DNA of 64,000 nt from an uncultured virus (IMG/VR IMGVR_UViG_3300031758_000013) (taxonomy: Duplodnaviria > Heunggongvirae > Uroviricota > Caudoviricetes): the IMG/VR virus record IMGVR_UViG_3300031758_000013. One strand, written 5' to 3'. The notes below the pieces were generated by a model. The model ran no database searches. It saw nothing but the letters and a program-made list of their open reading frames with translations, and was not told the origin of the DNA. A program made the position numbers and the translations under genes. Positions 8,759-13,110 of this stretch are shown one piece after another; position 1 is the first letter of the stretch; each line of letters begins with the position of its first letter.

Positions 8759-9217
8759 TTAGTTCCTTGCAATCCAGCGCTGGTAAAGACCAACTTCTCT
8801 ACCATATGCTTCTACTTCCCATGGCGAATCAAAGTAATGATCTTCTTTGCGCTTAGGCTTCCAGATCTTTCCCATCCACCTACTGTGAATCTTCAATCCA
8901 CCTTTTGCTGCTACCATCACACCAGATTGAAGTTCATTCTTTGCATGTTGCTTGACGTGAACTAGTTCATGAGCAAGAGTTTGAATGATGTCTTCATCGT
9001 CCTTGGCGCCACGAAGGCTGATGGTAAACCAACGAGGATTTCGAGTACCATCTTCATCAGTGCACTCTCCCTGAACTTCGTTCTTGGGAGTGTGTTCGAT
9101 ATCAATGATGAGGTTCCGAACAAGCCGCGGATCCATAAGAATGTCAGCGAAAAACTCAGTGGCTTCCGCCAACTCGGCTTTCTGCTTCTTAGTGAAGCCA
9201 ATGATCTTAAGCTGCAT
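8759..9217 (-). CDS. Putative zinc metallopeptidase
   Basis: TLAHELVHVKQ (HExxH) and PWEVEAY. Confidence 0.75.
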   Translation of the reverse strand: MQLKIIGFTKKQKAELAEATEFFADILMDPRLVRNLIIDIEHTPKNEVQGECTDEDGTRNPRWFTISLRGAKDDEDIIQTLAHELVHVKQHAKNELQSGVMVAAKGGLKIHSRWMGKIWKPKRKEDHYFDSPWEVEAYGREVGLYQRWIARN

Positions 9218-9769
9218 TTGACTTATCCTTTTCCATTATGTATACTCTACATCAAAACTATAAAAATGTCAACTACAGCCACTCATTTTCATCAATAATT
9301 CGTGCACTTCCTCGCTTGACCTCACGGCGGCGAGCAGATTGATCCTTAGTAACTTCCTTGTGATTCTTACTCAGCCCTCCAGACCACTCGTACTGGTTGA
9401 GTAGCAGGCCACGATGATCATAATACTCTTGCATAAGATATCTCCTTAAGCAGCAGCGCTGGATAGACTATCAAATACCTTTTTCCAATATCGCTTAAAT
9501 GCCGGATCGCGTGCTTTCTCAAATGCTTTGAGTGCATTGTCCAGTCGATGGTGAAGCTTTGCATCACATTTCATTTAAACACTCCATACAAAAGAATCGC
9601 AGTAATAAATCCATTCACCGCCAGAAGAGCTTTGTCTTCCATCTTATAAGCTGCGTATCCCCAGAGGCTGGCGCCTACAATAGAAAGAATAAGATCTACA
9701 TTATGGTACTCGAATGAACGAGCTCCAGCAGCAGAAATGACACACGCAGTGCCAATCCATTTCAAAGCA

Positions 9770-10111
9770 TTAAGCACTGTGAGCATTCTCCAGCTCGGTG
9801 AAGCCAAAGGAAGCGCAACGAAACTTAGTGCCGTCTTCCATTTCAATGATATCGCCAACCGACATCGAAGAGCAGCGAGGCGTAATGCGCTCGATCGCAG
9901 ATTCGTTTTCCCAGAGGTTCATCAGTGTGAACGCTTCTTCCATATCGTCGGTATCAACAGTAGCGACGTGAGTGTAAAACTGGAAATCTTCAGCCTTGAA
10001 GCGCGAATCGAGCGAACGGTTGAAGTAAGCCAGGTGCTTCGGAAAAGTCTCGCCGCGGTTGATAGCGTCGATTTCTTCATCGGTGAGCTGAATCTGATAA
10101 ACCTTAATCAT
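9770..10111 (-). CDS. Hypothetical early protein with YodL-like SMSVGDII motif
   Basis: VYQI...SSMSVGDII...F; early promoter upstream (10144-10172). Confidence 0.55.
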   Translation of the reverse strand: MIKVYQIQLTDEEIDAINRGETFPKHLAYFNRSLDSRFKAEDFQFYTHVATVDTDDMEEAFTLMNLWENESAIERITPRCSSMSVGDIIEMEDGTKFRCASFGFTELENAHSA

Positions 10112-10192
10112 TTCGTATTCCTTCTTTCATTCCTTATATTATTAGTATAGTCTATTTTCAAAATAATGTACAATAAAAAATGCACCGGACAT

Positions 10193-10223
10193 AAAAAATC
10201 CGGTGAGATAAACCCACCGGATT
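10193..10223 (-). terminator. Intrinsic terminator after OMP gene
   Basis: AATCCGGTG/CACCGGATT stem then T-run on the minus strand. Confidence 0.75.
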
Positions 10224-10240
10224 CATTATTGGAATTAAGA

Positions 10241-10732
10241 TTAGAAACGAACGCCGAAGCCTACAAGAGCTCCGTGCTGACCAACTCCACGATCAAAGTC
10301 GGTATAGCGATACTCGACCTTGCCATAGACAGGACCAGCAATGTTGGCTTCAACACCAGCTCCAAGACGCAGGCCTTCGAGTTCAGTCGAAGTGGTCTGC
10401 TTCCAGTTGGCATATCCAACCTTACCATAAACAAGAACAGCGTCCTTGATTACATAGCCAAGGCGAGCAGATGCACCAACATTACGACGATCGAATACAT
10501 TGTCAAGATTTGCTTCAAATCCAACAATAACATTCTTGTAAAGTTCAGCATCGAAACCAACAGCAGCTCCATAAGTAACATCAGTTAGGTCAAGCCGGCG
10601 AGCTGCGACTGGACCAGTAACATCGTCTACTCCAGCAGTCACTTCAGCACGAACACCCGTAAAAGAATTTGCCATGGCTGGAGTTGCAAGAGCGGTGCTT
10701 GCAGTTGCAATTGCAATCATAAAGTTCTTCAT
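10241..10732 (-). CDS. Small outer-membrane beta-barrel protein (OmpA/Omp25-like 8-strand family)
   Basis: Signal peptide ending PAMA, amphipathic strands, KVEYRYTDF, C-terminal GFGVRF BAM signal. Confidence 0.85.
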   Translation of the reverse strand: MKNFMIAIATASTALATPAMANSFTGVRAEVTAGVDDVTGPVAARRLDLTDVTYGAAVGFDAELYKNVIVGFEANLDNVFDRRNVGASARLGYVIKDAVLVYGKVGYANWKQTTSTELEGLRLGAGVEANIAGPVYGKVEYRYTDFDRGVGQHGALVGFGVRF

Positions 10733-10831
10733 ATATATTCACCTTTTGTTGTTAATCAGCGATTGATAGGCTCAATCACCAAAGCCTTCATACAACTGGT
10801 TGATACTCTCTTCCAGTATTCCTTAAACTTG

Positions 10832-10999
10832 TTAATTCTTTGGATAGCGATAGTGGTAAACATCATCAATGTTTTCCCATTCAATATCGCTCAAATCAAG
10901 TGCACTAATATCTTTAAACACTTTATAGCCAAAATAAGATAAAATTCCTATGATGACTACTCCTGCAGCACCGGAAAATATCTTTGTATTTTTAAGCAT
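10832..10999 (-). CDS. Small single-TM protein
   Basis: Start re-called at MLKNTKIF after a GGAGA RBS; hydrophobic segment. Confidence 0.55.
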   Translation of the reverse strand: MLKNTKIFSGAAGVVIIGILSYFGYKVFKDISALDLSDIEWENIDDVYHYRYPKN

Positions 11000-11011
11000 T
11001 AATATCTCCAT

Positions 11012-11306
11012 GAATAAAGCGAAGTGGAAGGATTTGGTTGTACCTTCAAGACCCAGCCAATTACCTATGTAATCTCGGTCTACAACTCGTTTGCTGGTTG
11101 AGCAGGAGGACCACTCCCCGAGTTTTGCCTTACTCCCACTGGCGAGGGAGTTATTCAGCCACACTTCTTACGTAGCCCGTCGGCCACGATATCTAAATGA
11201 GTGTAATGGCTACTGAGGTGTCGACTCGCTAGGTCGGTAATTTCGCTCTTTACGTTCCCATCTTCCCCCATATCGCTTGGTCACCACGGGAACTTCCACT
11301 ACATTC
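11012..11306 (-). ncRNA. Candidate ~295-nt structured RNA immediately 3' of tRNA-Asn
   Basis: Terminal stem AGTGGAAG/CTTCCACT and many internal helices; GC-richer than flanks. Confidence 0.6.
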
Positions 11307-11310
11307 AAAC

Positions 11311-11385
11311 TGGCTCCTCAAGATGGATTCGAACCACCGACCAGCGCATTAACAGTGCGCGGCTCTACCGCTGAGCTATTGAGGA
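11311..11385 (-). tRNA. tRNA-Asn(GUU)
   Basis: Cloverleaf, anticodon loop CTGTTAA, encoded CCA. Confidence 0.95.
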
Positions 11386-11419
11386 ATATGATCTTTATAT
11401 TCTTAGTCTACATTATATA

Positions 11420-11617
11420 TCAATTAATGTCAACCGTTTTTAATTCAGCACGAATTTCTTTATAGTGGCGAGTAAGAATTTCGCGAACTTGTTGCTTCTC
11501 AGTAGGAGTTGCAAACTGAACTTCAAAATATAGATTACCATTCATTGAAGATTCACCAGCAGCATTATCTGCATCTTCAAGAAAATCGCTTATGTGTATT
11601 TGTGTTTTGATAGTCAT
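11420..11617 (-). CDS. Hypothetical protein
   Basis: AGGAG RBS, ORF between tRNAs. Confidence 0.6.
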   Translation of the reverse strand: MTIKTQIHISDFLEDADNAAGESSMNGNLYFEVQFATPTEKQQVREILTRHYKEIRAELKTVDIN

Positions 11618-11632
11618 AACAAACTCCTATAT

Positions 11633-11709
11633 TGGTGCCCTTGGCAGGATTCGAGCCTGCAACCATTCGCTTCGAAGGCGAGCGCTCTATCCAGTTGAGC
11701 TACAAAGGC
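11633..11709 (-). tRNA. tRNA-Arg(UCG)
   Basis: Cloverleaf, loop CTTCGAA, CCA; atypical T-loop CTCGAAT. Confidence 0.85.
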
Positions 11710-11714
11710 GTATA

Positions 11715-11751
11715 TGGTGCGGAATGAGAGGGTCGAACTCCCGGCATCCTT
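11715..11751 (-). pseudogene. 3' half of a split tRNA (probably Val)
   Basis: AAGG-ATGCC-GGGAG-TTCGACC-CTCTC-ATTCCGC-ACCA; pairs with the 5' half at 12358-12386. Confidence 0.85.
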
Positions 11752-11757
11752 TGAATA

Positions 11758-11833
11758 TGGTAGGTCCTGACGGGCTCGAACCGCCGACATCATCCGTGTA
11801 AAGGACGCACTCTACCAACTGAGTTAAGGACCC
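11758..11833 (-). tRNA. tRNA-Val(UAC)
   Basis: Cloverleaf, loop TTTACAC, CCA. Confidence 0.95.
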
Positions 11834-12317
11834 GTGACCGATATAATCGGTTGTATTTATTACGTTTTGTATTCTTTTTATTGCGACCACACCATGTATG
11901 TGTTTGAGTATGGCAGTTTGGACATAAAATTTGCAAGTTATCTAATGAATTATTATCACTATTTCCATCTATATGATCCATTTGTAAGGTGAGAGGTTTA
12001 TTGTTCCACTCAGAACCTACACCGCATGCTTCACAATATTCTCCGCGTGTTTCAAACAAATACCGTTTCATGTGCTGTTCAGCAAGAACTTCTCCATTTT
12101 GTATTTGTTTGAAACGTTCTTTCCATTCATATTCACGTTGACATTTATTACTGCAATATTTGGCATTAAACGTCAAGCTTTGGCAATTTGGGCACAGTGT
12201 AGCTTCTTTAGTTTTACGTGAAACAGAATATCTTCCACCTTCGCGATGGACACTTTTATGTCCATTTAGTTTACGATGGTTATCAAATTCTTTGTCGCAC
12301 ACTTCGCACTTGTACAT
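11790..12317 (-). CDS. HNH homing-endonuclease-like protein with N-terminal C2H2 zinc finger
   Basis: YKCEVCDKEF...HKSVH; CxxC ribbons; DHIDGNSDNNSLDNLQILCPNCH; AGGAG RBS and TATAAATA upstream. Confidence 0.9.
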   Translation of the reverse strand: MYKCEVCDKEFDNHRKLNGHKSVHREGGRYSVSRKTKEATLCPNCQSLTFNAKYCSNKCQREYEWKERFKQIQNGEVLAEQHMKRYLFETRGEYCEACGVGSEWNNKPLTLQMDHIDGNSDNNSLDNLQILCPNCHTQTHTWCGRNKKNTKRNKYNRLYRSRVLNSVGRVRPLHG

Positions 12318-12357
12318 ATAAACTCCTTAGCTCAATTACTAAGTTATTTATAATTTT

Positions 12358-12386
12358 AAGGCGCTCTACCACTGAGCTAATCCCGC
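12358..12386 (-). pseudogene. 5' half of a split tRNA (probably Val)
   Basis: GCGGGAT-TA-GCTC-AGTGGTA-GAGC-G-CCTT then abrupt AT-rich sequence. Confidence 0.85.
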
Positions 12387-12391
12387 GAAAC

Positions 12392-12468
12392 TGGTACCCG
12401 TGGAGGGACTCGAACCCCCAACATCCTGGACCTAAACCAGGCGCCTCTTCCAATTGGACTACACGGGC
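12392..12468 (-). tRNA. tRNA-Leu(UAG), short variable loop
   Basis: Cloverleaf, loop TTTAGGT, CCA. Confidence 0.85.
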
Positions 12469-12545
12469 AAGTGACTCCCCACAGTGTGCTTCACTACTTG
12501 GTTGGCCGAACCTTTCACATCGAGAGGCAGGGGGAGTTCTATTAA

Positions 12546-12704
12546 TTACTTAGTTACAGCAACTCTAAGAGTGCCAAGGCCAAGAGCACCAAGAAGTGCA
12601 TATACGTATTCTGGAATAACATAACCTAAAGCTTGAGCAACAGCTAAAGCAATAGTAACTGCAGATACGATATAGGTCTTTTTACCTTCTAAAAATGCCA
12701 TCAT
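12546..12704 (-). CDS. 52-aa two-TM protein, holin-like (MMAFLEGKKTYIVSAVTIALAVAQALGYVIPEYVYALLGALGLGTLRVAVTK)
   Basis: Read by eye; AGGAG RBS and TATAAATA at 12749-12756; not in ORF track. Confidence 0.65.
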   Translation of the reverse strand: MMAFLEGKKTYIVSAVTIALAVAQALGYVIPEYVYALLGALGLGTLRVAVTK

Positions 12705-12762
12705 AGAGTTTTCTCCTTATATTAATAAAGTCTTGCAAGACTCGACTATATTTATATAAGGT

Positions 12763-12838
12763 TGGTGGAGAATAACGGGATCGAACCGTTGACCTTCTGC
12801 ATGCAAAGCAGACGCTCTCCCAGCTGAGCTAATCCCCC
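12763..12838 (-). tRNA. tRNA-Ala(UGC)
   Basis: Cloverleaf with G3:U70, loop TTTGCAT, CCA. Confidence 0.95.
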
Positions 12839-12840
12839 AT

Positions 12841-13110
12841 TTAAATACTTGGTTTATCAACGTTTGCGTTCATAGCTTCCATTGTTTCTAACCGAAGTGT
12901 TTCAATTTCAGATGCAGACGGAACGTAATTCTTTTTATAATTATATTCCATCAATTCATCTTGAGACATAGTCGACTTGAGATCAGAAACTATGAATGCA
13001 AACCGTAATACTTCATTGCTATTTGGATTATACATTGATACAGACTTAAGTCTGGCTTCAGCAATACGAAGATTATCAAATTTACTCATTGCAGATGAGA
13101 CTACATTCAT
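12841..13110 (-). CDS. Hypothetical protein (start re-called at MNVVSS)
   Basis: AGGAG RBS; the longer ORF-track start runs through tRNAs. Confidence 0.55.
   Translation of the reverse strand: MNVVSSAMSKFDNLRIAEARLKSVSMYNPNSNEVLRFAFIVSDLKSTMSQDELMEYNYKKNYVPSASEIETLRLETMEAMNANVDKPSI

Follow-up and report, generated by a model that had tools for sequence, protein, structure and literature searches.

Two probable RNA genes behind the last tRNA of an aquatic T4-like phage: a compact conserved RNA and a manA RNA

What kind of molecule is encoded by the 295 nucleotides (nt) that lie directly behind the last tRNA gene of an uncultured tailed phage, IMG/VR record IMGVR_UViG_3300031758_000013? The stretch (positions 11012–11306) is read from the minus strand, which is also the strand of the tRNAs, and belongs to the 64 000 nt of DNA analysed here, hereafter the window. 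Four nucleotides, GUUU, separate the encoded CCA of tRNA-Asn from its first position, and its GC content exceeds that of its flanks (0.49 at 11000–11299, versus 0.33 and 0.38 in the neighbouring 300-nt segments); on both points, our results agree with a preliminary description drawn from the sequence alone. That description saw a single, possibly new, highly structured RNA of approximately 295 nt. We arrive at another answer, namely that the stretch holds two independent RNA genes rather than one molecule: a 108-nt element on the 5′ side, here called module A (11199–11306), and a 172-nt manA RNA on the 3′ side (11017–11188), with a 10-nt linker between them (AUUUAGAUAU, 11189–11198, delimited by locus comparison). 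We give this explanation a probability of about 70%, a figure that covers the two genes together with the biogenesis and the functions proposed for them below.

The 3′ part belongs to an already known family. A scan of the whole window against Rfam returned a sole non-tRNA match, the manA RNA motif (RF01745), at 11017–11188 on the minus strand (66.0 bits versus a gathering score of 55.2; E = 1.5e-14), which covers model positions 1–192 of 192, untruncated. These 172 nt are a manA RNA. The window copy shares with the family the CUGAAUAA and GUAAGG blocks, the multi-stem junction, the long 3′ hairpin and the outer helix, and, like many known members, it comes from an aquatic T4-like phage. It differs in lacking one of the two small junction hairpins (model positions 99–115 are deleted); the neighbouring junction hairpin aligns with non-standard pairs, the sequence forming UGCU-CAACC-AGCA there. 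The freshwater clade scores only 60–67 bits (60.7–67.3 bits for the relatives' copies), and manA stood above the cut-off in seven of the 20 module-A loci scanned with Rfam. A further difference is one of placement, since manA lies here and in relatives in a tRNA array behind another RNA, module A being no part of manA. In an alignment of 11 sequences of the clade (A3), read by eye, both strands of the first hairpin change (CGUGGC/GCUACG, CGCUGG/UCGGCG, AGCCUC/GAGGCU, CAGGGU/ACCUUG), and the CUCCC/GGGAG hairpin becomes UCCCC/GGGGA. The window copy also keeps one UGGU loop and two ACCA-containing loops, mutually complementary, which could kiss in this clade, the choice of loops being a guess.

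Much of what had been noticed before finds its place in this family. All the helices listed in the preliminary description are present in the sequence; ACTCCC/GGGAGT, AACTCG/CGAGTT, GGAG/CTCC, AGACC/GGTCT and ATTAC/GTAAT belong to the manA model (Rfam alignment and manA fold), and the two CAACCA loops fall in the manA part. The GTAGCC/GGCTAC helix did not survive comparison, as GUAGCC is near-invariant in module A and its supposed partner varies with the first hairpin of manA. The Rfam check that had been set beforehand against the claim of novelty returned a significant match, manA, over 172 nt; novelty is accordingly lost for 172 of the 295 nt and kept for the 108 nt that have no Rfam family.

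The fold of these 108 nt was derived with RNAalifold and manual reading from an alignment of 28 distinct sequences (A2; 70% mean column identity). Module A consists of a closing stem and three or four hairpins. The closing stem P1 (GAAUGUAGUGG/CCAUUACACUC; 11 base pairs (bp), 11306–11296 with 11209–11199) is followed by P2 (8 bp, 11293–11286 with 11261–11254), with its distal CCA(A)-GCGA-U(A)UGG hairpin and GNRA cap, by P3′ (GUAA/UUAC, 11253–11250 with 11240–11237) and by P4 (4–5 bp, 11236–11232 with 11226–11222), after which a conserved 12-nt junction strand (ACACCUCAGUAG, 11221–11210) returns to P1. P2 is the GTTCCC/GGGAAC helix of the preliminary description; it is real and covaries (C-G in six sequences, U-A in 22). 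The closing stem, the P4 hairpin and the boundary between the modules had been overlooked.

Module A is a conserved, covarying structured RNA. Standard pairs occupy 94.9% of the cells in A2, versus 35–45% when the 3′ partners are slid by 1–3 columns, and both-sided changes occur in 15 of 32 pairs (10 of 11 in P1, two of eight in P2, three of five in P4); none of 500 shuffles, a control that ignores relatedness, matches the observed values. By our own count from the pair table, 58 of 895 cells are G-U pairs, and because these would be A-C mismatches on the opposite strand, the functional strand is that of the tRNAs. The minimum-free-energy (MFE) fold of the window copy alone reproduces the same architecture. 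Variation is found in several places: an extra hairpin sits within P2 in three sequences, the P2 tip is replaced outright in one, and a variant retrieved later (L260) carries a G-U pair in P3′. For the locus as a whole, significance rests on the Rfam E-value and on covariation rather than on folding energy, which is unexceptional for the 295 nt (z = −1.38; 15 of 200 shuffles fold equally well) and amounts, for the separate modules, to z = −1.28 (module A) and z = −2.77 (manA).

Module A belongs to a phage-restricted family of approximately 108-nt RNAs that is absent from the catalogues searched. With Rfam 15, a cmscan search of 11190–11312 at E ≤ 10 returned only a 10-bit chance match to an archaeal small nucleolar RNA on the opposite strand, and nothing for module A appeared at E ≤ 10 over 10800–11500 (701 nt). 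Neither ARAGORN nor Rfam calls a tRNA over 11199–11306, and A2 holds no T-loop motif. In the window, neither program calls a transfer-messenger RNA (tmRNA), two-piece forms included; the statement that the stretch lacks tmRNA, RNase P and intron signatures is likewise upheld by ARAGORN and Rfam. A full-text search with module A sequence strings yielded no paper, and the family may sit unnamed among the 8,495 candidate RNAs that Fremin et al. 2023 (PMC10690425) report as predicted in IMG/VR.

Two candidate identities were tried and rejected. Although GGAAGAUAGGAACG in module A resembles the core of the glnA glutamine riboswitch, the Rfam scans gave no glnA match. Homology to rnaC/rnaD of phage T4 was set aside as well, as R1, a covariance model built from A2, scored no higher than 5.6 bits in the T4 region with its filters disabled. 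In the window, R1 finds one copy (115 bits) and no further one; none was detected in 40 other loci of the neighbouring outer-membrane protein (OMP) gene, nor in the tRNA region of cyanophage S-CREM1, where the best score was 9.4 bits.

Searches of larger collections outlined the family. All 43 IMG/VR loci found with an exact 20-mer from the core were module A (43/43), and a degenerate pattern added three more contigs with single changes, giving 46 IMG/VR contigs. A third pattern recovered 41 stretches on viral contigs, all of them on contigs known before, and in a 14-mer scan, 30 of the 172 loci among the matches listed were true module A, most others being chance. One true copy was found among 185,579 prokaryote species (one genome each), on a contig of a metagenome-assembled genome that carries a tRNA array.

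Module A resides in tRNA arrays, on the tRNA strand. When 37 distinct contexts, each with flanks of at most 1.5 kb per side, were scanned with ARAGORN, same-strand tRNAs were found in 33 and opposite-strand tRNAs in none; in L213, tRNAs missed by ARAGORN were found by Rfam. The spacing is often tight. An upstream tRNA is present in 28 contexts, and in 12 of them exactly 4 nt separate its end from P1; a downstream tRNA is present in 22, starting 6–16 nt past P1 in 10. Rfam, applied to 20 loci, detected manA in seven and GOLLD in two, and no other non-tRNA family.

The relatives of the locus, some of them gathered via neighbouring genes, show that the modules are separable: they can be interrupted by a protein gene or a tRNA, and each is also found without the other. 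The distance between module A and manA is 10 nt in the window and in L177, L185 and L196, 53 nt in L180 and L191, 95 nt with a tRNA-Met in L197 and 541 nt with the OMP gene in L179. L005, L006, L007 and L010 have the OMP gene between the two, with module A following tRNA-Asn and manA coming last; L052 holds both modules with a longer spacer, L051 holds manA without module A, and in 13 of the 20 module-A loci, manA is absent within 1.5 kb. The claim of one RNA of approximately 295 nt fails on these comparisons.

Two observations on module A stand beside this result. In L008 (approximately 2422–2450), the interior of module A is cleanly absent, and all that stands between tRNA-Asn and the OMP gene is a small hairpin made of the two P1 arms. 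In addition, GG(U/C)GA in the P2 loop of module A (11282–11286, minus strand) is complementary to UCG(C/U)C in the loop of the second manA hairpin (11136–11140, minus strand): GGUGA faces UCGCC in the window and GGCGA faces UCGUC in relatives, in each case five pairs with one wobble. This complementarity is perhaps due to chance, 13 of the 20 module-A loci having no manA nearby.

The placement of manA itself bears on what it does. Weinberg 2010 (PMC2864571) describes manA as a riboswitch candidate in 5′ untranslated regions (UTRs), and Rfam has listed it since 2010 as a ‘cis-regulatory’ riboswitch candidate. In the window, in several uncultured relatives and in S-CREM1, it is placed within tRNA arrays, in the manner of an independent gene. 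In L197, manA (835–1004) lies between tRNAs with spacers of 8 and 10 nt; a tRNA follows manA after 9 nt in L177 (manA 1282–1451) and after 12 nt in L051 (1659–1829). In S-CREM1, a cultured cyanophage, the annotation by the authors themselves has tRNA-Leu ending at 10213, manA at 10215–10429 and tRNA-Asn starting at 10429. This S-CREM1 manA corresponds to our locus L366 (4216–4430), and the tRNA spacers range from 0 to 12 nt across S-CREM1, L197, L177 and L051. In section 3.5 of the S-CREM1 paper, manA is taken to be cis-regulatory, and its position among tRNAs goes unmentioned; in the literature on manA with tRNA or GOLLD, including the relevant passages of PMC2864571, we found no discussion of this context. 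As judged from gene order, the placement argues that manA may often be a stand-alone gene of the tRNA array and not a 5′ UTR element.

A recent preprint gives this arrangement a possible meaning. Ren et al. 2026 (10.64898/2026.07.01.735769) report by cryo-electron microscopy that manA forms closed 8-, 10- and 60-mers in vitro, held by kissing loops; RNA-only complexes have also been reported for a set of RNAs that includes GOLLD and ROOL (10.1101/2024.12.08.627333). By analogy, the manA of the window would most likely be a self-assembling RNA particle. A free self-assembling RNA fits better than a riboswitch, because tRNAs, and no coding gene, flank manA in several phages; the tRNA placement fits the RNA-only cages of the preprint and would offer them a natural route of release.

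The closest precedent in position is found in T4, where two non-tRNA RNAs, the same number as here, likewise lie just past the last tRNA on the same strand. There, tRNA-Arg is followed after 1 nt by rnaD (species 2, 119 nt) and, 6 nt further, by rnaC (species 1, 139 nt), compared with RNAs of 108 and 172 nt and spacers of 4 and 10 nt in the window. The resemblance does not extend to the molecules: rnaC has a tRNA-like T arm and module A has none, and no manA match was obtained in the T4 region at E ≤ 10. A second point of comparison is GOLLD (RF02032), which shares the habitat and the kind of genomic neighbourhood of module A, has a tRNA inside it and lies approximately 0.5 kb downstream of module A in two of 20 related loci (L188, 2032–2494, 189.6 bits; L211, 2015–2478, 177.6 bits). 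Rfam finds no GOLLD in the window, and module A does not match the GOLLD model; module A is also only about one-seventh of GOLLD's size. To the few non-tRNA RNAs of phage tRNA clusters (T4 rnaC/rnaD, GOLLD and manA), none of which has a known function, module A adds a compact and strongly conserved one, small enough to be assayed directly for cleavage, ligand binding or assembly.

How could two such RNAs be made? The tRNA-Asn (GUU anticodon, 11311–11385, minus strand; called by ARAGORN, Rfam tRNA score 66.9 bits), with its encoded CCA, is the last of a cluster of 15 tRNAs, all of which share one direction according to ARAGORN. Approximately 20 nt upstream of it, a pattern search finds a sigma-70-like promoter match (TTGACA, 17 nt, TAGACT; 10 of 12 positions; 11405–11433, minus strand), a possible start of the transcription unit. 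At the other end, a terminator-like hairpin of 12 pairs followed by a T run (10196–10224, minus strand) is the likely end. One transcript would then run from the promoter-like site at 11433 through tRNA-Asn, module A, manA, an ORF (open reading frame) of 55 amino acids (aa) and the OMP gene to the terminator at 10196. RNase P acting at the 5′ end of the next tRNA, together with the 3′-trimming enzymes of the preceding one, could free both RNAs or define their ends, which the closing stems and helices would shield. We thus infer co-transcription with the tRNAs and release by tRNA processing, with T4 rnaD/rnaC as a positional precedent. The preliminary description had already placed a structured RNA on the tRNA strand, ready for such release; the position stands, the single large RNA does not. 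Once freed, module A would, as the evidence weakly suggests, be a stable trans-acting RNA whose invariant junction binds a putative partner, be it a protein, an RNA or a ligand.

Public RNA libraries were searched for traces of such transcripts. No run contained half or more of the sampled words of the stretch; six freshwater or aquatic runs contained small shares. Among the contigs of four of these metatranscriptome runs, those of X1, X3 and X4, from three studies, hold module-A-like sequence (90–99% likeness), one such X3 contig at a depth of 291. Contigs of X2 and X4 hold the 3′ part of manA, and one X1 contig equals 10886–11036 with zero differences. This is a weak hint that such RNAs may be abundant.

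Several points weigh against the reading of two RNA genes released from a tRNA transcript. With regard to the fold, besides the relatedness that the shuffle control ignores, P3′ and six P2 pairs are invariant and hence uninformative on pairing, and the family is narrow, its members being very alike and fetched by conserved-core patterns, so that the invariance of the core is partly by construction. With regard to expression, contigs are the only RNA evidence; contigs from RNA libraries can hold DNA, give neither ends, strand nor level, and come mostly from relatives. Promoter-like sites occur in the region at the rate expected by chance (six found versus 5.5 expected), which makes the proposed transcription start only a lead. 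The cages were described in an unreviewed preprint, for other manA sequences and in vitro, and a term search of that preprint finds the word ‘tRNA’ 0 times. Lastly, the surroundings of manA and module A partly resemble those of leader elements: in the eight loci with both modules, manA is followed by an ORF in six and by a tRNA in two; in the window, GGAG and an ORF come after 8 nt, a classical riboswitch-like position; and in L005 and L010, module A lies approximately 55 nt upstream of the OMP start codon and could be a leader element.

These last observations are at the root of the rival that survives best, according to which module A, manA or both become, after removal of the tRNAs, the 5′ UTR of the mRNA for the 55-aa ORF and the OMP, and govern how well that mRNA is translated or how long it lasts, acting as riboswitch-like aptamers or as a 5′ structure that protects it. 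Such a leader is in line with the first description of manA as a 5′ UTR riboswitch candidate (PMC2864571), and the window itself has a Shine–Dalgarno GGAG (11009–11006, starting 8 nt past the manA match), a 6-nt spacer and the AUG of the small ORF (10999–10997, 18 nt past the match), all on the minus strand, which makes the manA position a potential 5′ UTR. An ORF is next to manA in the six loci just named, the OMP gene directly follows module A in L005 and L010, and the remnant P1 hairpin ahead of that gene in L008 would suit a 5′ stabilizer. However, the ORFs behind manA differ among loci, so that no single gene class would be controlled, and tRNAs lie on both sides of manA in L197 and S-CREM1 and behind it in L177 and L051. 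The tRNA that begins 6–16 nt past module A in 10 of the 22 contexts with a downstream tRNA also speaks against a leader, and neither a terminator nor an anti-Shine–Dalgarno platform was identified for it. We therefore regard leader control as unlikely, though as an explanation that keeps a real share of the probability.

A bolder view, which we hold to be doubtful and somewhat less probable again, would extend the argument to aquatic T4-like phages in general: their tRNA arrays would double as operons for self-organizing RNAs, module A would be a new RNA class, and manA would be no riboswitch at all. At the same low probability, module A would serve as a scaffold that assembles, would join the manA cage as partner or cargo, or would act as a new ribozyme, and the tRNA-processing enzymes would release it beside manA and, in relatives, beside GOLLD.

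That module A cleaves itself as a ribozyme, or serves as a dedicated processing signal, and so helps to cut the long tRNA-array transcript, is distinctly improbable. Its compact multi-stem junction, near-invariant unpaired strands and variable closing stem have the appearance of a ribozyme, its position 4 nt past a tRNA 3′ end in 12 of 28 contexts would suit a cutting site, and HDV (hepatitis delta virus)-like ‘theta’ self-cleaving ribozymes reportedly occur beside phage tRNAs in gut phages. Against this, no Rfam ribozyme family matches module A at E ≤ 10, its junction strands, inspected by eye in A2, are unlike the hammerhead core, and a closing stem that grips both ends would hold the products of cleavage together.

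The single RNA of approximately 295 nt, with 5′ and 3′ ends paired as AGUGGAAG/CUUCCACU (the paired ends AGTGGAAG/CTTCCACT of the preliminary description), is left with next to no probability and is contradicted by the locus comparisons, for although the 8-bp complement is present in the window and included in the MFE fold of the whole stretch, it occurs in one of the eight loci with both modules, the window alone, the longest complementary run in the other seven being 5–7 nt and located elsewhere, it clashes with pairing inside each module, namely the covarying P1 in module A and, in manA, the outer helix and the last hairpin, the fold energy is that of an ordinary sequence (z = −1.38), and in relatives the OMP gene or a tRNA splits the modules or one occurs alone. 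The window shows the terminal helix because the last hairpin of its manA is GAAGG/CCUUC, versus GGAGG/CCUCC in most relatives.

Downstream of the two RNAs, the minus strand carries the 55-aa ORF (10832–10999), which encodes one hydrophobic helix, has no Pfam family and has a 56%-identical relative in L051, and then the OMP gene (10241–10732), which encodes a 163-aa outer-membrane beta-barrel protein (OMP_b-brl, Pfam PF13505, E = 2.2e-14) with an N-terminal hydrophobic, signal-like segment. The OMP gene has 47 related loci in IMG/VR, and in most of those scanned with ARAGORN it lies close to phage tRNA genes. The phage itself is a freshwater T4-like myovirus, with PHROGs matches for a UvsX-like recombinase, DNA polymerase, major head protein, portal, tail sheath and large terminase; its major capsid protein shares 60–63% identity with the counterparts in Stenotrophomonas, Pelagibacter, Methylophilales, Synechococcus and Sinorhizobium phages. 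Searches of 50,697 deposited phage records gave no DNA match to the 295 nt (blastn, E ≤ 0.01) or to 9000–13000 (megablast), and in a further search the best 40 of 195 matching records did so through tRNA-Asn only; no close DNA relative, and with it no cultured host, is found among these records. In the nearest record, G001, the region is identical.

The tRNA arrays of the window and its relatives hold a few further features. The tRNA cluster contains an ORF for an HNH endonuclease (PF01844) whose N terminus carries a C2H2 zinc finger (11790–12317, minus strand); the listed 3′ end of this ORF overlaps tRNA-Val (11758–11833). Between tRNA-Val and tRNA-Arg, a 48-nt spacer (11710–11757, minus strand) resembles the 3′ half of a tRNA, with a GGGAG-UUCGACC-CUCUC T-arm and AUUCCGC-ACCA; no 5′ half was found for it, ARAGORN makes no call, and Rfam gives only a 13.5-bit overlap with YrlA (E = 6.5); it is possibly the remnant of a decayed tRNA, or a fragment of tRNA-like character. 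An insert of 88 nt between tRNA-Asn and module A in L010 (approximately 2249–2336), likewise not called by ARAGORN, ends in a T-arm, an acceptor-like strand and CCA, and may be a degenerate tRNA. Finally, L051 (524–598) and L052 (746–819) carry tRNAs with a CUA anticodon, labelled tRNA-Pyl by ARAGORN, which are candidate amber suppressors.

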